Of a stretch of DNA of 64,000 nt, positions 2,024-47,212 are shown in pieces. The notes beneath the pieces are model-generated. The model was not told where the DNA came from and ran no database searches. It was given only the letters and a program-made list of their open reading frames with translations. The position numbers were made by a program, and so were the translations under genes. The stretch spans positions 1 to 64,000 of the IMG/VR virus record IMGVR_UViG_3300048629_000034; one strand, written 5' to 3'. This DNA is from a virus (lineage: Duplodnaviria > Caudoviricetes). Position 1 is the first letter of the stretch. Each line of letters opens with the position of its first letter.

Positions 2024-2034
2024 CAACTCTCTCC

Positions 2035-8000: not shown

Positions 8001-10314
8001 CTACTTTTCTTTGTAGTTGAGTATTCTTATCTGACAGTATCTCATTATCTTCTTGATTATCCATATCTTTTTCGAACTCATCAAGTATAGCTTGAGCTGT
8101 TTTTACGTCTCCATTCGCCATTAGTCCGTCGAATCCAGGAATATATATGTTATCTATATTTGAACCAATTATTCTCTCATTGTTCATCAATTCTATCTCG
8201 GCAGTAGTTTCTTCTGGAGTCATATCTTTGGTTCTATTTGCTATGTACTTGGCTTCTTTTCTTTTATCGTACTTGGTCTTAGCTATCGAACCAATATCTT
8301 TTGCCACATGTAATCCAGCTCCAGGCACTGCACCTAATGCACCTGACCCTAATCCCATGAATGCTCCAGCACTTGCTTTGGTTCTAGTATCTTCACCCAT
8401 AGCTTCTTCTAGTCCAACTTGACCTATCATATTACCATCTAAATCAGTTTTGTTTGTACCATACACTCTGTTGAATGCATCTACGAACGATTGAGTATAT
8501 TCTTGACCGAACTCAGCTAGTCCAGCTGTTGCTAATTTAGTTCCTGCTTGACCTAGTGAACCAATGAATTTAGCAGCAGCATTTTTATCTTTGAATGCAT
8601 TCATTAATCTTGTAGCTGATTCCCTAGTCGGCAGACCTTTAATCGTATATTGTAGCGATGCTTTTTCTAGTAGTGCTGCAGGTAGGTTCAGTGCGAACAT
8701 TCCAGCTACTTTGCCTAGTGAGGCCATCTCTCCACCATTAGCCGCAACTACATCATCCAATTGATCGTTAGTCCATGTAGTTGCCATACCAATTTCGTTT
8801 GCATGATTCGCTATGAATAACTTAGCCTTGTCTTTCATTGGCAATGCTTTCATCATCTCAGCTGATTTAGCTAACTCTGCTTTAGCTGCATCACCTTTTA
8901 GTTTCTTTTTAGCTATTGTTTTTTGAGCTTTAGCTGTTTCTTCTAGTGCATCTCCAAGTAGACCCTTGAATCCTTTTTTAACTAGTTTACCAACTACTGC
9001 TGCTCCTGAAGTAGCTAACCAACCCAAACTGTATACGAATTGATCTGCGGAATCTGTAACTTTGTCTAGCATATCTAGTGCTACTTCGCCGTTACCTTTT
9101 TTGAATAACTTTCCATATGTACTTGGATGCATAGCTTCTACACCATCAGTAAGTTTACTGTATAGTCTATCTACATCAGCAGCTATATTTTGTTGTCTGG
9201 CTACATCTTGACCAACTACACTTTGTACGAACAATTGTCTATCTTTCTCCGACATTATGTCCCATTTGTCCATAGCATCAGCAGCATCTTTGAATCCGAA
9301 TGCATTTAGTGTTCTAGCACCTGCATTACCTATTAATTCAACCACCGAGTCTGCTTCACTTGTTAATCTATCTAATCCACCAGCTGTGAATTGTTTAATT
9401 ATATTTGATGGAGCCAATGAATCCCATAAGGTACTACCACCTTCTTTTGTGAATACCATATCTTTGATGTCTTTTTTTCTAGCAACTCCACCTAAGTTGT
9501 AATCAGCCACATCGTCAGATTCCATTATATTTGGATTGTATTCTTCGGTGTATCCTCTTTTTGCTCCCATCAATTTGTGCAGATAATCACCATTGTCGTA
9601 TGTTCTATTACCTAGTGCTACATCGGAACCATGTATAGTAGCCTCAGCAGTTACTGTATCATTGTATGGTTTTAATATCGCCATACCTACATCACCTAAT
9701 TTTCTTGGAGTATATCCTGCACCTGTAGTTGGTTTACCATTCCAGTTATATGTATCTAGTACATCTGAGTCTGCACCTTGACCGTATGTATGTCTAGCCA
9801 TCCCCATTTTAGTTGAACCATCATTAGCTAATCCTTGATACAGTGTACTTGCTTTACCATTGTATGGTTTTTGTTTCCATTGACCATCTTCGTAGTAGTG
9901 ATGGATATATTGGTTCTGTACACCAGTTTCAGTTAAGTAATCATCGGCTTGGTCACTTATGTATTTTGCCATTTGGGCAGGAGTTTGCAATGCATGATTT
10001 CTGATTTTATTTGCATTTGAGTAGAACTTGCCATCCTCGACAAATCCAGTATTCTTTTGCAATGGTATTGGATTATTAGTTATACTTCCATTAGTAGTAT
10101 TTTGATTTATTCTTCCGTCTATGCTTGCTTGATTTAGTGCATTGAACTGTGAGTTTTGACCCAACTTCTTAGTCAATCCTTGTAGCTTCTGCTGAGCTTT
10201 ATTGTCTAATTGTTGTTCTAGTGTTGGTTCTTGAGTCTGTCCGTATAGGTACTTCTCTGCATCTTGTGTTGATATATTTTGGCTGTATGCCAGGTATTCT
10301 GCATCTGTTAACAT
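2035..10314 (-). CDS. Virion-encapsidated RNA polymerase (N4 gp50-like), 2759 aa
   Basis: Motif A TVESDGKTNGP, motif B RDIMKFPLMKDAYGSG, IHTLDGAIM and motif C KQVFDA resemble N4 mini-vRNAP. Giant size and a single Cys. Confidence 0.93.
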   Translation of the reverse strand: MLTDAEYLAYSQNISTQDAEKYLYGQTQEPTLEQQLDNKAQQKLQGLTKKLGQNSQFNALNQASIDGRINQNTTNGSITNNPIPLQKNTGFVEDGKFYSNANKIRNHALQTPAQMAKYISDQADDYLTETGVQNQYIHHYYEDGQWKQKPYNGKASTLYQGLANDGSTKMGMARHTYGQGADSDVLDTYNWNGKPTTGAGYTPRKLGDVGMAILKPYNDTVTAEATIHGSDVALGNRTYDNGDYLHKLMGAKRGYTEEYNPNIMESDDVADYNLGGVARKKDIKDMVFTKEGGSTLWDSLAPSNIIKQFTAGGLDRLTSEADSVVELIGNAGARTLNAFGFKDAADAMDKWDIMSEKDRQLFVQSVVGQDVARQQNIAADVDRLYSKLTDGVEAMHPSTYGKLFKKGNGEVALDMLDKVTDSADQFVYSLGWLATSGAAVVGKLVKKGFKGLLGDALEETAKAQKTIAKKKLKGDAAKAELAKSAEMMKALPMKDKAKLFIANHANEIGMATTWTNDQLDDVVAANGGEMASLGKVAGMFALNLPAALLEKASLQYTIKGLPTRESATRLMNAFKDKNAAAKFIGSLGQAGTKLATAGLAEFGQEYTQSFVDAFNRVYGTNKTDLDGNMIGQVGLEEAMGEDTRTKASAGAFMGLGSGALGAVPGAGLHVAKDIGSIAKTKYDKRKEAKYIANRTKDMTPEETTAEIELMNNERIIGSNIDNIYIPGFDGLMANGDVKTAQAILDEFEKDMDNQEDNEILSDKNTQLQRKVDKAKQYMQDTIDKHYADKYDNMTNETMYAEGESRGSTADYINTLAYAFGNDESANDALNGQKISKLLEALNADKSIPAEDKQVIHKYVDNIDSIQSINSNLRDMIKDDSSLDVPLHEKVSSEIFLGKDGVVNQLKKIAKLKTESKNTKSLEKVVDKLESRLNEYSHHLSLKSGVLNKAVEGMIENNKAHLNNYGFSTNKNTRIKQIINYVKFLEDGTSGNVVSSYKKWNELYTKITGDSDAKLSKDEYQIPAELKADIKGGKYPLKDIEKRYAAPMSNTKKPAKKVSADGESAIFTINPQDQIRSLLNTAIANSDKIDNAQKDKLYLPTGVNTTINAINRDDMILNALMTDLDANNTSDVAKMMSEIANINHSNGTAFEHINKDKTDTNANNQSEPIAQQQSSKDEIERTMNGELAAVPFDEQTVEPKPKQENPDKNDNNEIEDQADEEQSEPDTKTRLDEIKDNINSALDKLEAGSSNDKYTDEQYSSDMIDYREATAKLSEFAKNNGKQIKELADEHGYTTKDIYQNDRKKLILEKISSRGLKEIKGYKEIQTKKENSDYRAGQKDKLDKINADIKDTYKKIKSNKGLIGRITISYNKLKEKAKKREEYVNELIGKLLRRDAARIGSKNKDNMDELNQEIEELDADNRQLFKLLQELNNIKKSKTDGSAVANKIKTTLLKYIKDTGENEPINSISSIARELLIIAGNIESDGEKIKKLIDGVLSNIRVRLNEKYDAKQKELNDKQQQLVTRTNNVVPKREAKLRNKADKLRDSRLEIIKDKEILSIHNIINTNRLSDKNKHLRPNEVFDIKDGKHTVFATYAFSDKFENEHDMIKEEFPELVKFYEEKDIHNIFDGLLNRDIRTEDKKGTMHVINNPSLQLMYDFSEAKNNAPVNDNVALAISIEALSAFNRSSSTWISMDSNKLSTFLNISEDDITPAHLTEYANKGIPRVYVADTIGRAIINQLGLKPKDSGVDGVYEQYAAGLGMAALLYLEKQKMVEFLELNGTDEKTTTPMVKLHNKFIEYDSSIKNSGQKLHIATINESKEELNAIADEISDDSITNYPRTRTKKHDEDYRVKVRNNPLNIGSKTNTDAIVTEENRVLTMNTELIGKMFGKIGSEKREKKVLKYKRLLGWKDIDELKKEHTMFDMIEAQKGLNRSIDDNIDTLLEHYDRIDSDPKAHREIMLDYFLAKSGRTMTDPGVGDYQGDKHFSRFLFNKSDDEYEIEIGNYRLGFKKAIAQSFGMKFEGKTDEEINVFADEILKTDVAKLQQIVNDYILDPDAKDSIEITVNGKEISLHYEFIGQTELALDTLIKIDKARKDGNKSVKTTLTVESDGKTNGPAFKIMQIPFPNYDTQISKSKKTGVFYYPQDSIGDKSPNDMFSTMDDLYEDLAKLLGRLTKILEQTREREEADSKSKKASSIIKASVYAQHLLKSGYEFEFVEDNGGTLVVTKDGRDIMKFPLMKDAYGSGSKSIAIGIGNDLSKEFLNTFTKKVMGTDNIAEEDVMEWKIIKELIPDSMYESSPMTIGLTTIDDIVKQINTNRKKENKDVELEVTTSSSNMRKIAYILEYKGSEAIMVQAKSVQDGVDYTGSIGTAIRDIFSNTYGMAAADILKESHSHFHKANNNINNAMKISVMIYNKVLDKKKEEFAKANDKSVEMLTIEDMTKIRESMIEAYPAMKTPLSSSKKDGVGIFQNSNDKTKRKSVTVALKDELTITGADGETKDIKSTKSAVVRKTVTASGSAGGVLPIHTLDGAIMSMIMEGFDVKQVFDALVANPYTMDEIAKRYNKLFYELNNKWNIYDSALKSLQESIEFANNNGFDDIVSELNNDNKNASKKDQIIASVEYDNFTDRGPIDIESMLKNMEEEVKINNKRVELYSKLPVEVHQMVYSKEAGHSANVDNKSNIDTDSIIDNVKSFMADALPGTKDTYRDASIFAEKKLDNIDEINNLDDLVEPNKKKTIPRLFATLNVILDKIKIENCK

Positions 10315-16329: not shown

Positions 16330-19300
16330 TTACACCATGTTATTCACTGAAATAACACCTTGGGTACAGTAAGGTTCTGCAGAGCTATCATCATAATCCT
16401 TACCAATAGTCCTGAAGAATAACGGAGCTCCTCTAATAACTCCACGTAATCCACCGATACCTGAGTAAGAAGAGTCGCTAGCATTTGGATCCCTTGAGAC
16501 TTTAATTTCGTTAAAAAAGTATAAATACCCATTATTCTCCTCCCTAATAGTCGTAAGAGTTATAGTGAACCCGTTAGAAGTAGTAGACGCAGTTGTGGTA
16601 CCCCATCCACTGTTACCAATAGCAGATATACCGTTAGCCCCCAATGTGTAATGAACATAACCATTTACATTAGAAGCTGAGCTAGATATAAATGTTGTAG
16701 TAATAGTATTGATTAAAGTATTACCTAGATATATATCTAGGTAGGAAGTACCAGTTAGATACTCGGTCACCCCAGAGTATGGATGAATAGTAAATACAAT
16801 ATCATCCACCTCTAAATACGGATCAGTACCTTTTACTAACTTATTGGTGCTAAGCGTAGCATAATCTGAGTATGAGTATAAAGGTACGTTAAATACTTCA
16901 GCACCTACTGGTACACTATACAAGTTAATATAGTCATAAGAAGTGTCATGGATAAATGAAGGTCTATGAGTATAAGAAGGTATTGAAAATGAACTTACAC
17001 TAGGTATCCTATATTCATCAGTACCACTTATATAAACAGCAGCAGGCATAGTAGTAGAGTTGTAGTCGGAAACAGGTATATGGTAGTTAGTAAGCACTTC
17101 TAGTTCTCCATCTAAGTCTAAGTAACTAGCTTTAATAACAGCTCCCTCAATGTAACTACCTATTAGCCTTTTACCAGTCAACTCGGTAGCGCTTATAGTC
17201 TCAGCAACTAGCCCAGTAGTATTGATTCTGTCAGCTAATATTGTCCCTGTAGTTATTTTACTTCCGTTTATTGTAGTAGTGTTATTGTTAATAGCATCTG
17301 CTACTTCTTCAGGACGTACGTAAGGGCTAAGGTCTATACTACTAACTTGACTATCCACATAATCAACATCAGCCAATATACCAGTAACAGTATCAGATGT
17401 CATAATTGCTATCTTCATTTGTGATATAGTACACACTCCAGTCCAACCTAATACGAACCAATCAGTAGTACTATTTAGTAGTATATCCTCTACTGTACCT
17501 ACTTGTGTAAGTGTATCAGCCTCTCTAATTATACCAAATGAACTATTTGTACTTGTGTTAGGTTGTATTAATCCTTCTACTATATACCATTTGTCATTAA
17601 CTAATGTAGCATTATGAGGTATAGCAGTTGTAGTGTATGTATCTCCATCTATTTGAATTACACTCATAGTATAATCTGTACCTGGTTTGATTGCAAACTT
17701 ATAATAGTAACTACTGTACATATCTTCGATGTAAGGTGAGTACACTTCATCAGAACTGCTAGGTAGTGCTATCTGAGGCTCTGCAAACGCATCAGCACCA
17801 ACTGATACTGAAGACACTGGATTACCTATGAATTGATATCCTGCATTGTCATCACTACCTATAAGACTGGTAGTAGGGATTAAGTTATCAGTTATATTGA
17901 TGTTCCTGTCTTTAAAAGACACAGTATTTACTGTAGATGAGATTGCTTCATCTATTGTTCCCAGCTGATTATTACCGAATGTAACTTTACCGTTAAATAG
18001 TGTCTCTCCGTTTCTTATACTAAATGTAGGTGTGCTATTCGTTCCATCTGAGTCACTAGTAAATTTAAACTTATCAGCATTGATCCAGAACTCACTATCG
18101 TAGCTTGGATTATTACCACCTTCTCCTCTAATTGCCTCAGACGTTAATCCAAATCCGCTTTTGTATGTGTGACCGTCGAGTGTGATATTAGAGCCATACT
18201 TGAAGTTAGTCTCAACCTTATCAGCAGTAACTTTTATTGTGTCCATTAATACTGAGTTACCACCAAGTGCTCCACCTATGTCAGCAGCTATTTTACCAGC
18301 ATCTTTATACTCTGGAATCCATCTATCAGTATTGTTAGGGACTTCATCACCATCTTTTGGGTACGGATCAGTAACTTTTATTACTACGTTGGGTTCAACT
18401 GTATCATCAATTATATTGTCAACTGGTTCGCTATATAGTGCATTTCCATCAGTATCACGTTCTTGCACATAGGTATTCACACCGTCAACTATTTCTTCTT
18501 TTAGTATTGGCATAACCATTCCGTCTGGAAATAAGTATGCTTCTTGATTTTGTATTTGTTCACTAACGGCTATCATTCCTTCAGTCTTCCAGTCATCATT
18601 CCATGACGATTCTTCACTATCCCATATAGTAGTAATCAGTATGCCATCAGTATTATTATGTATCCACATATCACCGTCATTCATAGTGTTTATGGTGCTT
18701 GGATCAGATTCTTGTCTATATACAGTAAGCTTACCGTCAGCAGTGTATTGTGATTCAGCTGCCTTTATGTATCCCTGAGCAAGTGCACCTTCTTGTAATT
18801 GCCAGTTTGTACCATCATACCTGTATGCTTTATAGTTATTTGGATCCAATGTATTAACATACCAATCTCCACTATTTGCATTAGAAGGAGCTGTGTTTGT
18901 ATATGAAATGTTGGTAACAGAGTTATCATTACCAACATAGCCTTCTAAATTTATTATATCAGTAGCTAATGAATTATCTCTTATAAGAGACCAATCAGTT
19001 ACTACGCTTGGAGAGTCTTTCAGTGCTCTATATGGAGTATTATCACTACCATAGTACAGTATGTCCCCTTCACGAGCATCACTAATAGCATATGTGCTTA
19101 AATACCAACTAGATATCTTACCATCGGCAACAGCTTCAGCATCTTTAGCAGCTTTATAAGCTTTTGCTACAGAGTTATCACTCTCAACCCAAGTAGTACC
19201 ATCAAATCTGTAAGCCACGACTGTGTACTCAGCAGGGTTAGTATCTGCTACAACAGAGTGTGTATTTATCCACCAATCTCCGATATCGTAGTCAGTGTCT

Positions 19301-22300
19301 GTTGTGCTAGGAGCTACAGTACTGTACGTAGCATTTATAACCCCATCAGCAGTACCTTGCGCAGCTAAGGCTGCACTTTGGGCTACAGCTATACCAGTAA
19401 CAAGTGAGCTGTTAGATATAGAGTTCCAATTAGATTCTATAGCTAATTCTGAAGTATTTATTTCAATCTTCGCAACATATAAGTCAGTAACTGTTTCTCC
19501 GTTAACAGTAGTACTTTTTACTAGTATATCCCCTTTCCTAGCTGTTACCACCTCTGCGAAGGTACTAGCGTAAAACGTAGTAACCTTACCATCAGCTGCT
19601 GCTTGCGAATTGATAGCTTGAACGTAAGCTTGACCTACCGTGTTTGTAGTATTAACAACCCAAGCCAATACACCGTTAACTAACTCATATCTCTTAACAG
19701 AAGGAGATAATAGAGTAGTATCTATCCACCAATCCCCTTCAGAAGGGCTGGTCGGTTCAGTATCTGAGTAGTATGCATCTACCTTGCCATCTAAAGTCCC
19801 TAAATCACTCTTAACAGTAGATATCCTTGTTAAAAGGTCTGTGTCTTGAGATAACTCCCACCCGTTGGTGGTATCATACACGTAGGTTGTTCCATCATCT
19901 AATGTAGTAGAGCCTCTTATAATAAGTACGTCTCCATCATGCACATCATTAGGCACTGTGATATCATCTTGGTAGTAAAACCTAGTACTATCATCTCCAG
20001 CTTTTTTAGCCTTAGTGAAAGCATCAGCTATTGCATTATTAGTCTGAGTCCAAGTATACGTACTAGGACTTACAGAGTTATCAATAGCTGTACATTTATA
20101 AGCAGTAGCTACTCCACCTCTAGAGTCATCATTAAATATATACCAATCCCCTAGGTTACCAACTACAGATCCAGTAGGTGCTACTGTAGCATAAGTAGCA
20201 TCCACTATACCGTCTGCAGTGCTTTGAGCTTGATTAGCTAGTAAAGCTGCTTCAGCTATAGAGGTGTCTTGAACTTCTACCCACTGAGTATTTGAGAACT
20301 GATACCTCCACAACTTGTTACCGTTATTTGTATCAATCCATAAGTCACCATCATTGCTCTCAACCATACCTTCAGGCTCATTATCTTGATAATGTGTGAC
20401 AATCTTACTATCGGCAGTACCTTGAGCAGTCACAATAGCTCTATCCTGAACACTGTGCCAACTCTTAGTGGTTCCATCTGAGTCAAGCATGTACATATAC
20501 TGAGAATTATCGGTACTATCAATAAGTAAATCTCCTAGTACTAGAGGTACATCAGCAGTACCTGTAACAGTACTAGTAGTACCAAAGTACGTACTTATCT
20601 TAGTAGTAGCTAAGGTTACACCTGAATTAGCCACTTCCTGTACATCAGCTAACCTAGAGAGAAGATTAACATCCTCTATAGGAGTGTAGGTCTTCACAGT
20701 TAATCCATTAACATCTTGTGTGACACTTATACGATGTTGGGTACCAATACCATAAACTAAGTTAGTTACTGGGTCAGTGTACTCCGCAGTAAGTGTTACT
20801 ATGTCTCCATCATCACCAGGTAAGGAGTTAAGAGTATCCAGATAGAACATTTGAAGCTTACCATCAGCAGTAGCTTCTGCTGTCCTAGCAGCTATGTAAG
20901 CATCAGCTATAGCGTTGCTTTTTTCGTGCCAGTTACCAGTAGTTGTGGAGGCTGTAGTACTATCATCATACATATATGCTGTAGCAGTATAGTCATGCTT
21001 ATAGATGTACCAGTCACCATTACTTCCAGTAACGTTCGCAGTTGGTGCTACATCATAGTAATTGGCTTCTATAATACCATCTGCAGTATATTGAGCAATA
21101 TCAGCAGCAGATTGTGCAGTAGCTATAGCAGTAGTAAGTGATGTATTAATTATCTTACTCCAGTAAGCTTCTATAGGTGTAGTGTCTGTAGCTGGTGTTA
21201 TAACTAGCGTGAACTGCTCACCTGAGAAGTGTTCAATGCCATTACCGTCAGTGTAATCTGCAGTAAGTACTAGTAAATCTCCATTCTCAGCTAAGCTATC
21301 AATAATAAAATCATCTTGATAGTATATAGTCATCTTTCTATCTGCCATAGTCTGGGCTTTGATAGCTTCAGCGTACGCATTAGCAGCAGTAGTATCTGTT
21401 ATTAGGTACCATCCGAAACCATCAACATCTACTTTGCCATCAACAGTATCCGATCCATAAAGGAACTTCCAACTAGCTATATACTCATTAATATCATTTA
21501 CAACTTTATATTGAATATAAGTATCTCCAGTATGTTTATTACGCTCTGCAATTGAGTTTGTTGCTAGGTCCGAATTGTACCAAGTAGCGTACGGTTCTGT
21601 TGGTGACGGTCTTCCAACATAATCACCATCAGGCAAACTTTCAGCATCTAGCACGGGTGAATCAGTGCCTGAGAATATATCAATCTTACCGTCAATTTGA
21701 TTTTGAAATAACTCTAGCTGCTGTGCTATACCAGACATTGCAATACCACTATCTGTTGGGTCATAACCTACAAATGTATTTATATCATTAATGTATCCAG
21801 CAGAACCAATAGACAACCCATCATTAGTGAATAGTTTAGCATTTAGTGTAGTAATTCTTTCAGCTTGCACTGATGTTTCGGAAGCCAATGCTGTATCAAC
21901 CTCTTGCAATGTAGCTACATTATCATTAAATACCGACTGTATCGTACTGATATTACTAGCTGTGGTAAATTGATTGTTAGCTATTGTATTCTTCAAGTCA
22001 GTAACTAGTGAATTAATTCTACCACCATCTATCTGGCTGTTGATATGTTGCAGAACCAACGTAGATGCTTCCTCTGGAGTGGCTTTTGTTTGTTCTAGTT
22101 TGATTATATTAGCAGCAACATTCATCAGTGTGGAATTCAGTGTTTCTAATTTTCGTACGACTATGCCATCGATTGTCTCTTCGCTCATTATTGATTCAGT
22201 GTATGTATTTCTAGCTAACTCTGCTTCTAATAATGAGGCATTAATTGCATTCATTGCTAACTTTAAGTCACCAAGTGTCCGTGCACTAGCTAATTCAGCT

Positions 22301-22518
22301 ATACTATTAATTGAGTCTAGCAACCATTGTGGTGTGGCACTACCTGAACCATGTAGGAATATATCATCACCAGTTACTATATACTCTTTTTTCTGTATTA
22401 TTACATCTAAGTCTGTTGTAGGTGCTACTTCTATTATGTGATTTGGTTCAGCAGATGCTATTGTATCATTAGTGCTTGTTTCTACTATTACGTTATCTAC
22501 TTCTGTTGCTATACTCAA
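16330..22518 (-). CDS. Large tail fibre/tail tip protein, 2062 aa, with internal modular repeats
   Basis: Recurrent A(Q/E)xTADG(K/I)...Y and GDxW(I/Y) modules; DUF1983-like SGFGL...EFWINADKF segment; INGSKITTGTI. Confidence 0.7.
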   Translation of the reverse strand: MSIATEVDNVIVETSTNDTIASAEPNHIIEVAPTTDLDVIIQKKEYIVTGDDIFLHGSGSATPQWLLDSINSIAELASARTLGDLKLAMNAINASLLEAELARNTYTESIMSEETIDGIVVRKLETLNSTLMNVAANIIKLEQTKATPEEASTLVLQHINSQIDGGRINSLVTDLKNTIANNQFTTASNISTIQSVFNDNVATLQEVDTALASETSVQAERITTLNAKLFTNDGLSIGSAGYINDINTFVGYDPTDSGIAMSGIAQQLELFQNQIDGKIDIFSGTDSPVLDAESLPDGDYVGRPSPTEPYATWYNSDLATNSIAERNKHTGDTYIQYKVVNDINEYIASWKFLYGSDTVDGKVDVDGFGWYLITDTTAANAYAEAIKAQTMADRKMTIYYQDDFIIDSLAENGDLLVLTADYTDGNGIEHFSGEQFTLVITPATDTTPIEAYWSKIINTSLTTAIATAQSAADIAQYTADGIIEANYYDVAPTANVTGSNGDWYIYKHDYTATAYMYDDSTTASTTTGNWHEKSNAIADAYIAARTAEATADGKLQMFYLDTLNSLPGDDGDIVTLTAEYTDPVTNLVYGIGTQHRISVTQDVNGLTVKTYTPIEDVNLLSRLADVQEVANSGVTLATTKISTYFGTTSTVTGTADVPLVLGDLLIDSTDNSQYMYMLDSDGTTKSWHSVQDRAIVTAQGTADSKIVTHYQDNEPEGMVESNDGDLWIDTNNGNKLWRYQFSNTQWVEVQDTSIAEAALLANQAQSTADGIVDATYATVAPTGSVVGNLGDWYIFNDDSRGGVATAYKCTAIDNSVSPSTYTWTQTNNAIADAFTKAKKAGDDSTRFYYQDDITVPNDVHDGDVLIIRGSTTLDDGTTYVYDTTNGWELSQDTDLLTRISTVKSDLGTLDGKVDAYYSDTEPTSPSEGDWWIDTTLLSPSVKRYELVNGVLAWVVNTTNTVGQAYVQAINSQAAADGKVTTFYASTFAEVVTARKGDILVKSTTVNGETVTDLYVAKIEINTSELAIESNWNSISNSSLVTGIAVAQSAALAAQGTADGVINATYSTVAPSTTDTDYDIGDWWINTHSVVADTNPAEYTVVAYRFDGTTWVESDNSVAKAYKAAKDAEAVADGKISSWYLSTYAISDAREGDILYYGSDNTPYRALKDSPSVVTDWSLIRDNSLATDIINLEGYVGNDNSVTNISYTNTAPSNANSGDWYVNTLDPNNYKAYRYDGTNWQLQEGALAQGYIKAAESQYTADGKLTVYRQESDPSTINTMNDGDMWIHNNTDGILITTIWDSEESSWNDDWKTEGMIAVSEQIQNQEAYLFPDGMVMPILKEEIVDGVNTYVQERDTDGNALYSEPVDNIIDDTVEPNVVIKVTDPYPKDGDEVPNNTDRWIPEYKDAGKIAADIGGALGGNSVLMDTIKVTADKVETNFKYGSNITLDGHTYKSGFGLTSEAIRGEGGNNPSYDSEFWINADKFKFTSDSDGTNSTPTFSIRNGETLFNGKVTFGNNQLGTIDEAISSTVNTVSFKDRNINITDNLIPTTSLIGSDDNAGYQFIGNPVSSVSVGADAFAEPQIALPSSSDEVYSPYIEDMYSSYYYKFAIKPGTDYTMSVIQIDGDTYTTTAIPHNATLVNDKWYIVEGLIQPNTSTNSSFGIIREADTLTQVGTVEDILLNSTTDWFVLGWTGVCTISQMKIAIMTSDTVTGILADVDYVDSQVSSIDLSPYVRPEEVADAINNNTTTINGSKITTGTILADRINTTGLVAETISATELTGKRLIGSYIEGAVIKASYLDLDGELEVLTNYHIPVSDYNSTTMPAAVYISGTDEYRIPSVSSFSIPSYTHRPSFIHDTSYDYINLYSVPVGAEVFNVPLYSYSDYATLSTNKLVKGTDPYLEVDDIVFTIHPYSGVTEYLTGTSYLDIYLGNTLINTITTTFISSSASNVNGYVHYTLGANGISAIGNSGWGTTTASTTSNGFTITLTTIREENNGYLYFFNEIKVSRDPNASDSSYSGIGGLRGVIRGAPLFFRTIGKDYDDSSAEPYCTQGVISVNNMV

Positions 22519-35227: not shown

Positions 35228-36268
35228 TTAATTCCTTATTAATATTTTATTGTTGATTCTTCGATTGGCGAAAATCATTCTTAGTTTGTAGGTAGATATC
35301 GTATTCCATAAATTAAATGAATCTGTAATTATTGACCACCCATTATAGGCTGCAACCTTACCCTTTAGCTGTCTATCTCCAAAATTTTCATGATTATTCG
35401 TAATGTCTCTGAACGTCTTTACCATATTTTTCTTGATTTTGTTTCTTATCATAGTATATTGATGAAAGAATCTGAACCCAAGAAAGTCTACTCCTCGCTT
35501 ATTTACTTGGTATACCTGGTAATTGCCTTTTATTGATAACTTTAATTCTTTATCCAAATACTCCTTTATTGTATTAAATACATCATGAAGATATTCTTTG
35601 TCGTCATGCAATATAACTATATCGTCACAATATCTAAAATAATGCTTTACACCAAGTTTTTCTTTGACCCAATGATCAAAATAAGTTAAGTATAGATTAC
35701 CGAAGTATTGGCTCATATAGTTTCCAATCGGAACACCTTTAGTACTATCTATTATTTCATCAAGCAATGTTAATGTGTCTTTGCATTTAATCTTTTTACG
35801 TATTATTTGTTTTAGTATATCATTGTTTATGCTAGGATAGAATTTTTGCACATCTAGTTGTAAGCAATATACGGGTTTATCTTTTCTGATTATTCGTTCT
35901 ATCTTCTTTTTAGCCTTATGAACACCTCTTCCTCTTATTGATTGGTAGGTGTCAGATATTAGTGTTTTAAACCAGATTGGTTCAAGCACTTGCATTATGG
36001 CATGATGTATAACTCTGTCAGGAAAATATGGTAGTTTATATATTTCTCTTTCTTTACCTTTGTCGTTCTTTATGAATATCTCATATTGACTATTAACAAA
36101 GGTCTTACTTTTAAGCATTTGGTGTATTTTTTCTATGTAGAAGTTTTCGTTTCGGTTGAATCGCATAACTTCTTTATAGTGCTTTTTACCAAGCTGAGCT
36201 CTTTTATGAGCTAATCGTATATTATCTATATTGTATATTTTTTCGTATAAATTATTGTATCTTTTCAT
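35228..36268 (-). CDS. DGR reverse transcriptase
   Basis: KEREIYKLPYFPDRVIHHA, LDVQKFYPSI, GVPIGNYMSQ, YFRYCDD, GVDFLGF. Likely start MKRYNNL at 36268 with GGGGTGA SD. Confidence 0.95.
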   Translation of the reverse strand: MKRYNNLYEKIYNIDNIRLAHKRAQLGKKHYKEVMRFNRNENFYIEKIHQMLKSKTFVNSQYEIFIKNDKGKEREIYKLPYFPDRVIHHAIMQVLEPIWFKTLISDTYQSIRGRGVHKAKKKIERIIRKDKPVYCLQLDVQKFYPSINNDILKQIIRKKIKCKDTLTLLDEIIDSTKGVPIGNYMSQYFGNLYLTYFDHWVKEKLGVKHYFRYCDDIVILHDDKEYLHDVFNTIKEYLDKELKLSIKGNYQVYQVNKRGVDFLGFRFFHQYTMIRNKIKKNMVKTFRDITNNHENFGDRQLKGKVAAYNGWSIITDSFNLWNTISTYKLRMIFANRRINNKILIRN

Positions 36269-36387
36269 TGTCTTATCACCCCTGAATCTTCCCGTTAGGT
36301 ACCAATACATAATAGAGCATAGCAGTGTGTTTTACCAAGAGGTAAGGGAGCAAATCGTTAAGTATTTGTTGTTTTAATTGATAAGTT

Positions 36388-36488
36388 CGGGTACCCACAT
36401 TATCATTCGAATTAGAAGTGGTCCAATTGGTATTCAGATAGAACGTGCCAGTATTCAGCCCATTATTCGCATTCCCGCTAGATAACAT
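36388..36488 (-). ncRNA. DGR template repeat (TR)
   Basis: 101-nt ungapped alignment to 36611-36711; 19 of 20 mismatches fall at TR adenines; rich in AAT codons. Confidence 0.95.
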
Positions 36489-36525
36489 GTTAAACTTACT
36501 CCCTGTATATATGTAGGCAGTTTTG

Positions 36526-36571
36526 AGTGGGATACCCAGCCCACTTTATTTATACTATGTGATATAGTATA
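36526..36571. promoter_or_regulatory. Two hairpins between VR and TR (candidate DGR target-recognition cruciform)
   Basis: AGTGGG/CCCACT (36526-36545) and TATACTAT/ATAGTATA (36551-36571), about 20 nt past the target stop. Confidence 0.5.
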
Positions 36572-36588
36572 TACGATTAAACCTTACA

Positions 36589-37935
36589 TTAAGCTTTCTT
36601 AAATTGAGACCGGGCACCCACATCAACATCCGAATCAGAAGCGCGCCAACCGGCATGCAGATAGAACGCGCCAGCACTCAGCCCATGATGCGCAGCCCCG
36701 CCAGATAACATAATTCTATTTCCACTATTTTGCCAGTAATAATCACCAATCTTAGTTGAGCTTCCTGCACCTATAGTATCTGGGAAGAATCCTTTTGAGC
36801 TATTTGCTAGTGTATTTTGATAGCCACTGCTAGCACTCATTGTAATTCCAGCTGATACATAATCACCACTGAATACATCATCAGCAAATCCAGCAGAATT
36901 ATTTGATATATACGGCACATAGTCTTGGATATTGATACCATCTACGAATGTCCATACATTACCGTAGAAGTCTTCTATACCTCTGTATGACATAAATGCA
37001 GCATCTGCAGCAGCGTCATCTGCATCACCAGCATAGTTAATTGCACCAGTACCATTACCTATCGAATTACTTCTACCAGCAATCCCATGATAGCTACCAG
37101 GAGCCCATGAACCGCCACTTAGTTGAGTTCTACCCATACCAATAACTTCTTGTGAATTGAAGTCAGCAAATTCTACCAGCATTAGTAATTGAACAGCACT
37201 TAGTGTATTGAAATCTTGATGACCCCATCCAGAACCATTACTCTTGGCAGTTGTTCTAGCACCGTCTCTAGTTTGCGATACTTTTGGGTACGAACCACTA
37301 ACTGATCTACCATTTGCATCCATTGCATATGCAGCAATGTATATTTTATAGATTTCACTTCCGTTATCTACAAATGCAGGATGAACTGTAGCTCCATCAA
37401 ACGGAAGCAAATTAATCATATGTGAATGCGTTCCATTTTTATATGAGTATTTGTAGTAGAACTTTGGTATCTCTACCATTACATCACCATCAGTACCATC
37501 TAATACAGCAGCACTACCATCTTCTTTGTAATTACTATTTGTTTCTGATAAGTAGTAATTAACTGTACCATTATCAAGTAGTGTACATCTTTTCATCTGT
37601 CTTTGGATATATGTAAAATCAGTTCCACCGATTCTATTGTATATATCACCATTTTGATCCCATGTAACACCATATGGTTGTATCGGGTCTAGTACACTGA
37701 TATCGCCTGAACCAACAATAGAATTACCATTAATAGTTTTTAACTCACTCTCTTTAACAATAGTAGCATCAGCTGGTTCATATCTAGCATCACTTGTAGC
37801 TTTATCATATACGTCTGCAGCATTAGCCTTATCATTACCTAGTGTAGTAATATCAGCTTCAGCACCTTCTATTCTAAGTCTATGAGCTTTAAATTCTGCC
37901 CCGACTTTTGTTCCTATCGATGTCATTATTGACAT
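36589..37935 (-). CDS. DGR target: tail adhesin with C-terminal C-type-lectin-fold domain (Mtd-like)
   Basis: GDVMVEIPKFYY and YRGIEDFYGNVWTFVDG; VR at the extreme C-terminus. Confidence 0.88.
   Translation of the reverse strand: MSIMTSIGTKVGAEFKAHRLRIEGAEADITTLGNDKANAADVYDKATSDARYEPADATIVKESELKTINGNSIVGSGDISVLDPIQPYGVTWDQNGDIYNRIGGTDFTYIQRQMKRCTLLDNGTVNYYLSETNSNYKEDGSAAVLDGTDGDVMVEIPKFYYKYSYKNGTHSHMINLLPFDGATVHPAFVDNGSEIYKIYIAAYAMDANGRSVSGSYPKVSQTRDGARTTAKSNGSGWGHQDFNTLSAVQLLMLVEFADFNSQEVIGMGRTQLSGGSWAPGSYHGIAGRSNSIGNGTGAINYAGDADDAAADAAFMSYRGIEDFYGNVWTFVDGINIQDYVPYISNNSAGFADDVFSGDYVSAGITMSASSGYQNTLANSSKGFFPDTIGAGSSTKIGDYYWQNSGNRIMLSGGAAHHGLSAGAFYLHAGWRASDSDVDVGARSQFKKA
36611..36711 (-). repeat. 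DGR variable repeat (VR)
   Basis: GC-rich copy of the TR encoding MLSGGAAHHGLSAGAFYLHAGWRASDSDVDVGAR. Confidence 0.95.
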
Positions 37936-38144: not shown

Positions 38145-39113
38145 CTATTTAGCTGAACTAAATGCTGTATCGAAATCAGCAAGTGAACCAATAGCAGCTA
38201 TACTATCATTTAGTACTTTACCTTGAGCAGCACTAAGTGATATAGATGTATCTGTGCTATCTAGTCCGTTATACACATCTCTTTGAGCTATAGTTGTATC
38301 TATAGCATTTCCATTGTATGTTGGTTCTCCGTTAGCATCTTCTCCGAATTTATCCAATATAGTAGAATTACTATGAGAATGAAGATCAGTAGTTTTTGCA
38401 ACATCACTTGGTAGCGTATACACAGTATCTGTAAATACAGCATTAGCAGGTACTGGAGTTAGGACTTTATTGTCTACATAAACTTGTGTAGTAAAATCAC
38501 TATCGTTAGTAATATCAGAAGTTTTGGTAACCTTAGTATATCCCATAGCTCCAATTTCACTATCTGATAATTTAGTATCATCAAGGAATGAGCTTAAATC
38601 AACACTATTACCGTTAGAAATAGATATAGCAGTACCACTTAATGATAATAATTGACTATCAGTTTCAGATGTCAAGTAACCTGCATCATTAGTTAGTTCG
38701 CTTACTTTTGTAGGAACTGAGCTAATATCAGCTTTATTTGATAATGTATTATTTATTGTTGAAACATCAGAAGCTAATCCAGCTTCAACGCCTTTAGCTC
38801 TAGTAACCTCATAAGTTAAGTCAGTAACAGTATCTTGTGCTGTTGTATCCGAAGCTAATGCAGCTATATCAGCTACAATAGTACTGTCATCGTACACAGT
38901 ATCTGTAAATACAGCATTAGCAGGTACTGGAGTTAGGACTTCCGAAGCTAGTGCCTTAGTATCCAATTCATCAGCGACAGCTACGAAGTTTTGTTGTATT
39001 GGTTCATTCCAATTGATACTATCTCTACCTATAAGGTCTAGGCCTTTATATTGGACAGTAGCATTACTAGGAAGTGCTAACGAACCAGTATCTGTAACCA
39101 AATTATATGTCAT
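38145..39113 (-). CDS. Tail fibre-like protein with internal repeats
   Basis: VPTKVSELTNDAGY, two copies of VLTPVPANAVFTDTVY, SLSAAQGKVLND. Confidence 0.7.
   Translation of the reverse strand: MTYNLVTDTGSLALPSNATVQYKGLDLIGRDSINWNEPIQQNFVAVADELDTKALASEVLTPVPANAVFTDTVYDDSTIVADIAALASDTTAQDTVTDLTYEVTRAKGVEAGLASDVSTINNTLSNKADISSVPTKVSELTNDAGYLTSETDSQLLSLSGTAISISNGNSVDLSSFLDDTKLSDSEIGAMGYTKVTKTSDITNDSDFTTQVYVDNKVLTPVPANAVFTDTVYTLPSDVAKTTDLHSHSNSTILDKFGEDANGEPTYNGNAIDTTIAQRDVYNGLDSTDTSISLSAAQGKVLNDSIAAIGSLADFDTAFSSAK
38419..38941. repeat. 49-bp perfect direct repeat (38419-38467 and 38893-38941)
   Basis: TACACAGTATCTGTAAATACAGCATTAGCAGGTACTGGAGTTAGGACTT occurs twice. Confidence 0.9.
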
Positions 39114-44149: not shown

Positions 44150-47100
44150 TTAAACATAGCTTGAGAATGCGTTGGTTCTATTTCCTATACTTTTTCTTCT
44201 GTTCGCAAACAGTCTCATGCCTCCAGATGCCTGTGTCCCTACATTATGACCAGCATTTTTTGACATCTCTTGACCTGTCATGCCGCTCATTGGGTAGTTT
44301 ATTTGCATCATAGCTATTTGACTAATCAAATCTGGCCCATCATCATGTCTAGAATTATGAACTATGCATCCGTTAACTACAAAGTTGCTGTAACCAGGAA
44401 CCTCTATATCGTAGACAGGCTCATTCTTTCCTGTGTTTTTTATTTCTTCTATAGAAACTAGATCTGCATTCGACAGAGCAATATTTTTGTCGAATAGTAT
44501 GTCCCATAAATTTTTTTCCACATTCTCTACATTCGCATTCGAATTTAATTGTTTTTCTAGCTTCGTCAATACATATTTTTCCGCAATATTTAGTTTTGTT
44601 TGAAACTGGTGAGACAAATTTCTTTCCGCAATTCTTGCACTCTCTTTCTTCTGACCTAAGTAATCTTTTTTTCTCATTATGTATTTTTGTACATTTTGGA
44701 TTGTTGCATAAAATTTGGTTATGGCTTTGTTGCATAACCTCATTTGAACAGATACTACACTTGATAACTTGAAGCGGTTTATAATCGATATTGAATCTAA
44801 GTTTCTTTGCTTTACTTCGACACGATTCTCCGCAATATTTTGCATCGTTTCTTGAGTTTTTGTGCATAATAAACTCTGTTCCGCACCATTTACATATTCT
44901 GTTGATCTTTCTATTCTGTTGTTTTCTTGCAGATGCTTTTTTTCGGTATGATTTGTCTCTGGCATAGAAATGATCATTTGATCCTTTGTGTATTTTTTGA
45001 TGCTCTTGTCTGGTAAGAATGATGAGATTACATGCTTCATTGTTGTCTTTATTTTCGTCAACATGATGCACATCAAACCCTCGCGGGATTGATGTGCCAG
45101 TTTCTCTTTCAAACACTTCTCTGTGTAACCATTTTCTTTTTCCGTTAATATTTCTTGTGGATTGATAGTATCCGTTTGGTTTTTTTCTCCACTTGAATCC
45201 ATATCTTTCATCTTGCATATACTGTTCCTTATCAATACATCCCAATGCCTCAGATCGTCTACTCTTACATAACCTCTTGCTGTCATAACCCTATGACAAC
45301 CCGTAAGCCTCATAATTAGTCCATCTGCGGTAACTAGTTCATATATCTCTTTATTTCCAGTAAATATAGCATTTTTTGGTTTAACATATGCTGAATACGA
45401 CCCATTTGTTGCTAGTACCATATCCTCATTAGTAATATCAGTTATATACTTTTCTCCGTCAATACACTTAACCAAAGTATCAGCAGAGAAACAACCGAAG
45501 CTGTCGTGTTTTATCATCATCAACTGCTCCATAAGTACTTTCATGTCAGGAATATCCTGAAGCTCTCTCGGAAACCATATCTTTCTGTTCTGGAATAATG
45601 GTAGAGTCATTCTGAACCTCCAGTGCTTATTACCACCTTCCAGTCTACTTGTTATCCCCTCAGAGCCAGCTTTACTACCTTTGGCTCTAGCGAATGTGAA
45701 GAATATACCTTTTCTAGGCATTCTCTCTCTAACTGCTTCTAGGTGAGCTCTTTGGTTCCCATCTAATTCTATACCAACTTCTATGTATCTAGCACCAAGT
45801 GAAGTATATAGTTGCGCAAACCTAAATAACTCATCGTATTGATCTTCTATTGTACATTTTCTAAGCGACAAATCCAACATAAAGTGATCCATATTACTAT
45901 TTACAGCCCACACAGCTATACCACTATAATCACCATTTAGATCATTACTTGAAGTAAAATCTGTTGTGATATATATATTGTAATCACTCATTCTTTTTTG
46001 GATATCTACTCTATTGAACCATTGTATGTAGTTCTGCTGTAGCATTTTATCTTCAGATGTACTTGTTCGCAGATAATGCTCTTGCATTAGTTTCTTCATT
46101 GGTTCTGGATTTCCTGCATCTTTGGCTCTTTGTGCTCTTCGATAATCCCTCATACAGTTCGAGAAGCTATGTCTGTCTGGCCATACTGATACAAATTCAT
46201 CCTCTACCATATCTTCTCTTATTGATTCACCTCTAGGGAACACAACTGGAAGCCAAGTACCTTCTTCAATTCTTCTTGTAACGCTATCATTCTTTCCATA
46301 TGGAGTACCAATTATTACTGCGAAGTTTTTATTATTATTTAAACCAGGAAGCACATCGGCTTCAATAGTACTTTCTATGCTTGTCATTATTGATTTACTT
46401 GCTGCAGCCTTCTCGCCCTTTATCAAATCGTCAAATATTGAGGCATCCGGCCTAGCTAGTCCTGACCTAGTTCCTCTAACCCCAGCTTCAGCTCCAACGC
46501 CACCCAATGTGAATGTTCTAAGCATTCTGCCTGGAACAGTATCTTCTGACTTTCCTTGTTTTATTACATGGTCTTCATATGCTCGTAATTCTGACTTTGT
46601 TATTGGCTTTCTAACAAACAATACTTCATTTACATTTAGTTTCCATGACTCGAAGAATTGTTGCATATATGGACTCTCTAGGAATACTTGCTTAATCATC
46701 CCCATTGTGGTTTTTACATTATTCTCCATTGTGTCCCCTACATATAGCATGTAGTTTATTTTTCCGAAACCTGGAAGTTTCCCTTTAATTGCTGCGAACA
46801 TAAATAAATATGTTACAATACTGCTCTTGCTAAATTCCCTGCAAGACAATATTGCTATTCTGTCATTCATTCCAAAGTAATCAATATTACGAACCATAAA
46901 GAATGGCTGAACATTTGGTTGTCTGAATATACAATCAACGAAGAAGTAATGTGGCAAACTATTGCTGTTCTCTGGTTCTCTACCTAGTGCCATACGAATG
47001 AATGCCATAAACTCTATGGCATGGTCACTTGGGATATACCATTTTAACTTTAGATCTATATTATCTAACAACTTATCCATAGTTATTATCTTATCTTCGA

Positions 47101-47212
47101 ATGCTTTCAATACTATTCCATCAGAACCAACCTCCCACTTGTGATGAGGGTCGACTCCATCTGGATATATTGCAGCTACACTATTTGGTAGCTTATCTGC
47201 TGGTATAAGCAT
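44150..47212 (-). CDS. terL: Terminase large subunit (N4 gp68-like) containing a 380-aa intein
   Basis: CREFSKS Walker A variant, GVRGTR...RPDASIFDDL, IIGTP, WPDRH, YITTDF, HDD. Confidence 0.93.
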   Translation of the reverse strand: MLIPADKLPNSVAAIYPDGVDPHHKWEVGSDGIVLKAFEDKIITMDKLLDNIDLKLKWYIPSDHAIEFMAFIRMALGREPENSNSLPHYFFVDCIFRQPNVQPFFMVRNIDYFGMNDRIAILSCREFSKSSIVTYLFMFAAIKGKLPGFGKINYMLYVGDTMENNVKTTMGMIKQVFLESPYMQQFFESWKLNVNEVLFVRKPITKSELRAYEDHVIKQGKSEDTVPGRMLRTFTLGGVGAEAGVRGTRSGLARPDASIFDDLIKGEKAAASKSIMTSIESTIEADVLPGLNNNKNFAVIIGTPYGKNDSVTRRIEEGTWLPVVFPRGESIREDMVEDEFVSVWPDRHSFSNCMRDYRRAQRAKDAGNPEPMKKLMQEHYLRTSTSEDKMLQQNYIQWFNRVDIQKRMSDYNIYITTDFTSSNDLNGDYSGIAVWAVNSNMDHFMLDLSLRKCTIEDQYDELFRFAQLYTSLGARYIEVGIELDGNQRAHLEAVRERMPRKGIFFTFARAKGSKAGSEGITSRLEGGNKHWRFRMTLPLFQNRKIWFPRELQDIPDMKVLMEQLMMIKHDSFGCFSADTLVKCIDGEKYITDITNEDMVLATNGSYSAYVKPKNAIFTGNKEIYELVTADGLIMRLTGCHRVMTARGYVRVDDLRHWDVLIRNSICKMKDMDSSGEKNQTDTINPQEILTEKENGYTEKCLKEKLAHQSREGLMCIMLTKIKTTMKHVISSFLPDKSIKKYTKDQMIISMPETNHTEKKHLQENNRIERSTEYVNGAEQSLLCTKTQETMQNIAENRVEVKQRNLDSISIINRFKLSSVVSVQMRLCNKAITKFYATIQNVQKYIMRKKDYLGQKKESARIAERNLSHQFQTKLNIAEKYVLTKLEKQLNSNANVENVEKNLWDILFDKNIALSNADLVSIEEIKNTGKNEPVYDIEVPGYSNFVVNGCIVHNSRHDDGPDLISQIAMMQINYPMSGMTGQEMSKNAGHNVGTQASGGMRLFANRRKSIGNRTNAFSSYV
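44354..45493 (-). mobile_element. Intein (aa 574-953 of TerL)
   Basis: Block A CFSADTLV, block B LTGCHRVMT, block F VYDIEV, block G CIVHN followed by +1 Ser. Confidence 0.93.
44421..45218 (-). CDS. HNH homing endonuclease with four Cys4 zinc-finger repeats, overprinted inside the intein
   Basis: LHREVF...VHHVDENKDNN...NL...EH..IH; four CxxC...C(x3-5)C repeats; AAGGA SD at 45226-45230. Confidence 0.85.
   Translation of the reverse strand: MQDERYGFKWRKKPNGYYQSTRNINGKRKWLHREVFERETGTSIPRGFDVHHVDENKDNNEACNLIILTRQEHQKIHKGSNDHFYARDKSYRKKASARKQQNRKINRICKWCGTEFIMHKNSRNDAKYCGESCRSKAKKLRFNIDYKPLQVIKCSICSNEVMQQSHNQILCNNPKCTKIHNEKKRLLRSEERECKNCGKKFVSPVSNKTKYCGKICIDEARKTIKFECECRECGKKFMGHTIRQKYCSVECRSSFYRRNKKHRKE

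Follow-up and report, generated by a model that had tools for sequence, protein, structure and literature searches.

The terminase large subunit (TerL) gene, terL, of a metagenome-assembled phage (IMG/VR record IMGVR_UViG_3300048629_000034) is interrupted by an intein that is very probably non-canonical, in which the place of an in-frame endonuclease domain is taken by a complete HNH endonuclease gene, encoding an I-HmuI-like core and four zinc ribbons, in the -1 reading frame of the same DNA. The stretch examined, hereafter the window, comprises positions 1-64,000 of a 113-kb viral contig whose completeness is estimated at about 90%. An earlier sequence-only reading of this region had described a 380-residue TerL intein with intact splicing blocks and no endonuclease in frame at its centre, together with a 265-residue HNH nuclease bearing four Cys4 zinc-finger repeats, encoded on the same strand in another frame and preceded by an AAGGA Shine-Dalgarno site 7 nt before its ATG; all of these elements were recovered in the present analysis.

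Organization of the intein-bearing terL gene

The arrangement of terL and of the HNH open reading frame (ORF) nested within it is as follows, where pLDDT (predicted local distance difference test) is the score of the AlphaFold2 models described below.

44150..47212, minus strand: terL, terminase large subunit precursor, 1020 residues including the intein, stop codon at 44150-44152 (from the ORF list)
45494..47212, minus strand: N-extein, 573 residues, ending in KHDSFG
44354..45493, minus strand: class-1 intein, 380 residues, from CFSADT to IVHN, with Cys1, block B T64..H67, His379-Asn380 and Ser+1
45224..45493, minus strand: N-terminal splicing region, blocks A and B, intein residues 1-90, pLDDT 67-88, all beta strands
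44465..45223, minus strand: shadow linker in the TerL frame, intein residues 91-343, stop-free, neither conserved nor confidently folded
44354..44464, minus strand: C-terminal splicing region, blocks F and G, intein residues 344-380, pLDDT 62-86, beta strands at 344-379
44153..44353, minus strand: C-extein, 67 residues, starting with SRHDDGPDLIS, the conserved acidic motif of the nuclease domain
44421..45218, minus strand: HNH homing-endonuclease ORF, 265 residues plus stop, in the -1 frame relative to terL
45226-45230, minus strand: Shine-Dalgarno site AAGGA, 7 nt before the HNH ATG, within the terL coding sequence
44997..45134, minus strand: HNH catalytic core, HNH residues 29-74 (...HH.DENKDNN...NL...H..H), the envelope of the Pfam HNH_3 match
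44427..44909, minus strand: four zinc-ribbon-like modules (CxxC ... Cx3-4C) with conserved Cys columns, a presumed DNA-binding array

The N-extein, that is, the first 573 residues of the terL product, matches the terminase large subunit family phrog_38 of PHROG (E 1e-38), and the Pfam Intein_splicing profile matches TerL residues 589-953 with 60 bits, against a cut-off of 35.8. The features of a class-1 intein are all found, namely a Cys nucleophile at intein position 1, a block B of the TxxH type (LTGCHRV), and a terminal IVHN followed by Ser+1; in an alignment with two relatives, residues C1, T64, H67, H379 and N380 are invariant. Conversely, Pfam and PHROG searches with the TerL-frame centre of the intein gave no endonuclease and no other match. 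Intein-less TerL relatives (about 640 residues) read FG|S(A/R)HDDG.DLIS without a gap across the junction, which indicates a precise insertion at a conserved site; judged by this alignment, the intein interrupts TerL immediately before the conserved S.HDD nuclease motif. Given that TerL is essential and that the splicing blocks are intact, the precursor is presumably processed by protein splicing.

Read on the same strand but shifted two bases downstream from TerL, the HNH frame is open from stop to stop over 44421..45290 (289 codons), with a TTG at 45245 and the ATG at 45218, upstream of which it remains open for 24 codons. The ORF spans intein residues 92 (start) to 358 (stop) and so occupies the place of the endonuclease domain in canonical inteins, while the first 15 or so codons of the C-terminal splicing region (44420-44464) overlap DNA that encodes the final helix and stop codon of HNH. 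Its product matches Pfam HNH_3 (PF13392; E 7e-12, 45 bits against a cut-off of 24.8) and HNH endonuclease families of PHROG (E 9e-29); no Endonuclease_7 match was obtained in Pfam at E <= 0.1, that is, the protein is not endonuclease VII-like (IPR004211). Residues H52, D54, N59, N60, N64, H73 and H77 are invariant in 11 relatives. When the TerL-frame codons were shuffled 20,000 times, the -1 frame contained a mean of 23 stops, and its longest open run had a mean of 41 codons and never exceeded 120, compared with the 266 observed; chance is therefore excluded as the origin of the HNH ORF.

The two-frame layout in other phages

A search of the TerL family yielded 413 homologues, most of about 640 residues and without an intein. 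The closest are 55-57% identical to the window TerL, and most of these are likewise free of the intein and align colinearly through the junction; this patchy presence is typical of a mobile element. Two full-length relatives from the same search, P0003 and P0101, do contain an intein devoid of an in-frame endonuclease, and in their DNA the -1 frame encodes an HNH ORF of 288-289 residues while the TerL frame remains open. Their loci are L012/L013 (ENA and JGI) and L014/L015 (NCBI and Logan), each pair consisting of two independent assemblies, and the layout was also found in the isolate record of Acinetobacter phage vB_AbaM_Highwayman (L002, OZ038341), where it occurs in an unrelated type of TerL. 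Outside the window, it is thus present in three other terL genes, represented by five independent assemblies or records.

Furthermore, IMG/VR was scanned with the HNH alignment, and the 40 loci obtained were sorted by script and Pfam into the following arrangements.

HNH overprinted in an open host ORF: 13 of 40 loci (about 9 distinct), host frame always +1 of HNH
Split-intein fractured genes: 9 of 40 loci (about 6 distinct), separate N-half and C-half ORFs flanking HNH in frames +1/+1, +2/+2 or mixed
HNH in frame: 1 of 40 loci, within a ribonucleotide reductase intein on a 296-kb contig (L047)
No intein half detected nearby: 17 of 40 loci, at least three of them between terL and the portal gene

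An intein part is detectable in 12 of the 13 overprinted loci, the exception being a short truncated ORF (L023), and the hosts identified by Pfam are Terminase_6 or Terminase_3. The TerL of the window matches neither of these profiles in Pfam and hence represents a third type; in at least one of the overprinted loci the intein is located in the ATPase domain rather than in the nuclease domain. The split form was also observed in the N4-like Vibrio phages 1.238.A/B and 1.245.O, in which GenBank records a 'terminase large subunit' and a 'hedgehog/hint domain protein' and the HNH gene is unannotated. The sporadic occurrence among TerL relatives, together with the presence in several TerL families and insertion sites, is indirect evidence that the HNH protein may act in homing.

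Several individual loci deserve description on their own. In Vibrio phage 1.238.A (L001, NC_055735.1, 239-3967), terL holds two inteins: one near the N-terminus, of the in-frame LAGLIDADG type, and a split one at an HDDA|C site, with an unannotated HNH ORF of 236 residues (3001-3711) between its halves. The jumbo phage contig L047 (IMGVR_UViG_3300046786_000985) encodes at 711-5240 a class II ribonucleotide reductase of 1510 residues, also with two inteins, of which one carries LAGLIDADG and the other an in-frame HNH_3 plus NUMOD3 that is distantly related to the window HNH. The nearest relative of the window HNH, P0122 (44% identity), derives from L055, a contig of 859 nt (ENA ERZ24875783) with 1.35x coverage that was called with TAG as Gln; it has an in-frame TAG at HNH codon 6 and one host-frame TGA just after the N-terminal splicing region, and at this coverage read errors, decay and a recoded phage cannot be told apart as the source of these stops. 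Among the TerL relatives, P0007, P0034, P0035 and P0119-P0121 bear LAGLIDADG-type inteins after GxGA, before TGGRGS and in the Walker region, and, counting these other sites within the same clade, the TerL family has four or more insertion sites and is thus a hot spot for inteins. At the protein level, only three entries of a 5.8-billion-protein collection match the window HNH at near length. Pairwise identities of the splicing domain and of HNH are about 30-40% each, too uniform for the inheritance of the two to be compared.

Selection on the two frames

Four contiguous terL genes, in which the host frame runs uninterrupted through the intein, were compared frame by frame: those of the window, L012, L014 and L002. 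Pairwise BLASTP in the HNH frame gave 61-165 bits (E 1e-15 to 4e-54), whereas the TerL frame of the same DNA, that is, the shadow, gave 13-23 bits. Conservation is thus confined to the HNH frame, and HNH is the protein under purifying selection. Over the HNH ORF, none of the four loci has a stop in the TerL frame (0 observed), against a mean of 3.5-4.7 after synonymous shuffling of the HNH codons (P <= 0.006 each), which shows that this frame is selected only against stops and not for its sequence. The sequence-only reading had supposed selection on both frames; conservation of the HNH frame was found, and so the proposal holds in full for HNH and only with regard to freedom from stops for TerL.

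HNH is at -1 to its host in every contiguous case, and the stop counts offer an explanation for this rule. In the four contiguous loci, the +2 frame of HNH contains 22-49 stops; in free-standing or split HNH relatives, 8-14 stops occur in the +1 frame of HNH and 19-35 in the +2 frame. These HNH genes, being rich in Lys, Arg, Asn and Cys, have few codons with T at the second position, and for this reason the +1 frame is cheap to clear of stops while the +2 frame is not. Together with these counts, the fact that the frame is fixed only where read-through is needed, and varies in the split forms, points to a compositional constraint.

Probable translation of the HNH gene

A purine-rich, Shine-Dalgarno-like site lies about 4-9 nt upstream of the HNH start in all seven relatives examined, which include contiguous, split and free-standing forms, and the N-terminus of the window HNH (MQ.E..G.KW) aligns with the starts of its relatives. 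No slippery heptamer of the form X XXY YYZ was found upstream of HNH in the four contiguous loci. The conserved ribosome-binding site and start, along with the lack of such a heptamer, make internal initiation on the terL message the most likely route of HNH translation, and a frameshift fusion unlikely. RNA folding at the HNH start of the window placed the Shine-Dalgarno site in the loop of a hairpin (z = -2.5); a conserved regulatory hairpin was considered and rejected, as three relatives gave z values of -0.7 to +0.2.

According to the model that we favor, the late terL mRNA would be read in two ways. Ribosomes starting at the terL ATG would read through the whole region, producing an unstructured linker of about 250 residues that would be removed together with the intein upon splicing, leaving an active TerL of about 640 residues; ribosomes starting at the internal AAGGA-N7-ATG would produce the free HNH enzyme. 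In a mixed infection, this enzyme would cut an intein-less terL near FG|S.HDD, and repair would copy in the intein and HNH as a unit. Selection acts to keep the HNH protein sequence and requires of the TerL frame only that it be free of stops.

Predicted structures

AlphaFold2 models were built for HNH from an 11-sequence alignment and for the TerL-frame intein from a 3-sequence alignment. The HNH frame gave a mean pLDDT of 86, with a beta-beta-alpha core at the N-terminus and, after it, four zinc-ribbon units of hairpin-hairpin-helix form (pLDDT 80-95). The best Foldseek match of this model in the PDB was I-HmuI (1u3e; E 8e-4, probability 1.00, 116 columns), with a low TM-score explained by the fact that the model is a chain of separate modules. 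In the TerL frame, a HINT-like beta structure was predicted with confidence only for residues 1-90 and 344-380 (pLDDT 62-88); residues 91-343 had a pLDDT of about 30, all of them below 50.

Comparison with known systems

Inteins with an out-of-frame endonuclease are already published, first in 2025 by Gosselin et al. and then in a 2026 preprint on dnaX; thus, the departure from canonical inteins noted by the sequence-only reading is present in the window, but the idea itself is not new. Gosselin, Arsenault and Gogarten (bioRxiv 10.1101/2025.01.02.630785) described actinobacteriophage inteins, many of them in terL, with an antisense homing endonuclease or an endonuclease VII-like one 'in frame 3 relative to the intein', and proposed an origin by invasion of free-standing endonuclease genes. 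The window shares with these a contiguous intein (theirs often in terL) and a same-strand endonuclease ORF between the splicing blocks, in frame 3, which equals -1, with the host frame open. Unlike them, its nuclease is of the HNH_3, I-HmuI-like type with four zinc ribbons rather than endonuclease VII-like, its host is a 113-kb, AT-rich, non-actinobacterial metagenomic phage with a clear Shine-Dalgarno site, and its HNH family includes split-intein, free-standing and in-frame relatives. Therefore, what is new here is the HNH_3/zinc-ribbon nuclease, the non-actinobacterial AT-rich phage, and the occurrence of all four states in one HNH family.

The 2026 preprint reportedly concerns a cyanobacterial dnaX intein, sporadic in occurrence, with an out-of-frame endonuclease, which it reads as the secondary invasion of a mini-intein; as presented there, the homing endonuclease likewise lies in an overlapping frame, but dnaX is a cellular host gene and not a phage terL. 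Earlier literature is said to give the endonuclease of Synechocystis dnaX as an antisense LAGLIDADG. Dassa et al. (2009; PMC2677866) reported split inteins whose halves are separated by GIY-YIG or Vsr-like genes, including one case in a phage terminase, and predicted that HNH was possible. In these fractured genes, as in the window, an endonuclease gene separates the intein parts and extends at its 3' end into the C-terminal one, and their exact arrangement was found in relatives of the window HNH (L001, L005, L011, L016 and L037). The window itself differs in that the host frame is uninterrupted, which gives a contiguous intein that should splice in cis, and in that the endonuclease is HNH and not GIY-YIG or Vsr-like.

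The ShiLan domain (Arsenault et al., 2025; PMC11855218), an out-of-frame HNH hidden in a phage DNA methylase, resembles the window in having an HNH gene out of frame inside a host ORF that stays open. It has no splicing domain and no detectable ribosome-binding site, and its shadow peptide stays in the product, whereas the window has intact splicing blocks on either side of the shadow, and a Shine-Dalgarno site as well. Finally, canonical inteins with an in-frame HNH domain, as indicated by Dalgaard et al. (1997), also combine an HNH endonuclease with a HINT domain, but the window HNH is predicted to be a separate polypeptide read from another frame.

Objections and alternative explanations

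Several observations weigh against a splicing-competent intein housing a functional, separately translated HNH gene. An unstructured insert of 250 residues might slow cis-splicing, and the shallower alignment used for the TerL frame may account for part of the contrast in pLDDT between the frames. Codon-usage log-odds per codon, trained on 24 long ORFs of the window, are -0.03 for the HNH frame and +0.14 for the shadow frame, and so do not favor the HNH frame. Also, no relative was found that is close enough for a per-frame ratio of nonsynonymous to synonymous substitutions (dN/dS), the nearest being 42-44% identical at the protein level; the terL region had no megablast match among 50,697 phage records, and neither the TerL N-extein nor the in-frame intein retrieved any relative from IMG/VR.

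Part of this evidence would suit a decaying relic, namely a mini-intein that now persists by vertical inheritance with a long junk linker and whose HNH is no longer made or active. In its favor are the lack of close relatives, so that nothing points to a recent transfer of this copy, an HNH codon usage that is not phage-like, and the in-frame TAG in the closest HNH relative, on its contig of low coverage. Such a relic is improbable, as the ORF is intact over 265 codons where shuffled sequences acquire many stops, conservation extends to every catalytic His, Asn and Asp and to the Cys ligands that align in all relatives, the Shine-Dalgarno site and start position have been kept, and the HNH model folds with high confidence.

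A domesticated role in packaging is slightly less probable still. HNH would then be a packaging cofactor, as in HK97-like cos phages, maintained within terL for co-expression and not for homing. Free-standing relatives do directly adjoin terL, between terL and the portal gene, and PMC3592412 indicates that zinc-ribbon HNH proteins beside terminase genes are known; however, most of the closest TerL relatives lack both the intein and HNH, the HNH_3, I-HmuI-like type is a homing type, and inteins at more than one site, in TerL families unrelated to each other, harbor this HNH type, which the ribonucleotide reductase intein carries in frame in a single case.

We regard as very improbable that HNH is made by programmed -1 frameshifting as a fusion of the N-extein, the N-terminal intein part and HNH. 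The constant -1 position in contiguous cases and the 24 open codons upstream of the ATG are what such a mechanism would leave, but no X XXY YYZ heptamer precedes HNH in any of the four loci, the relatives retain an ATG or GTG start preceded by a Shine-Dalgarno site, and the low stop content of the +1 frame already accounts for the constant -1, with frames that vary in the split forms, where no read-through is needed. Lastly, an artefact in which two compensating indels pushed an in-frame HNH out of frame, conceivable in a metagenome-assembled contig, is effectively refuted by the presence of the layout in at least four independently sequenced, diverged terL genes and a dozen IMG/VR contigs, and by a host frame specifically purged of stops, since random indels would not give a stop-free shadow frame.

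We therefore retain the interpretation of a splicing domain with a separately initiated HNH gene and a shadow linker inside the intein. This architecture, advanced by the sequence-only reading, is borne out by the conservation of the HNH frame, the independent assemblies, and the free-standing and split relatives, and the direction of evolution put forward with it, in which a free-standing HNH gene invaded a mini-intein, is plausible.

Other features of the window

The window also contains the following elements.

35228-37935, minus strand: diversity-generating retroelement, with reverse transcriptase at 35228-36310, template repeat at 36388-36488, variable repeat at 36611-36711 and target gene at 36589-37935
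38419-38467 and 38893-38941: perfect direct repeat of 49 nt, its copies 474 nt apart
2035-10314, minus strand: very large ORF of the structural module (2759 residues)
16330-22518, minus strand: second very large ORF of the structural module (2062 residues)

The reverse transcriptase of the retroelement (PHROG E 2e-109) adjoins a tail protein (PHROG E 1e-81). The two 101-nt repeats share 80% identity and differ only at positions where the intergenic copy has an A; this is the classic template-to-variable-region pattern, here at the C-terminus of the tail protein. The 49-nt repeat lies within an ORF of 322 residues (38145-39113) without a PHROG match and suggests an internal duplication in a structural gene.

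Implications

A broader hypothesis, which we put forward tentatively and consider less likely than not, is that the HNH_3/zinc-ribbon gene and the HINT domain form one ancient composite element that moves among unrelated TerL families and sites, so that the four states (free-standing beside terL, split-intein, contiguous in the -1 frame, and in frame) would be interconvertible stages of its life cycle. If true, the window would hold a living intermediate in the way inteins gain endonuclease domains, and selection might favor the shadow linker in its own right, as a flexible tether that does no harm.

Nested homing-endonuclease genes are systematically missed by gene callers, as protein matches are few yet about one third of the DNA loci are overprinted. 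Moreover, terminase annotation and phylogenies become inflated and muddled when terL carries an intein of this type, and the zinc-ribbon HNH enzymes are candidate site-specific nucleases. The rule that HNH is always at -1, together with its explanation by stop content, provides a simple and testable constraint on overprinting. With regard to the origin of inteins, our results support a 'splicing first, endonuclease later' model, with natural intermediates from a single nuclease family.

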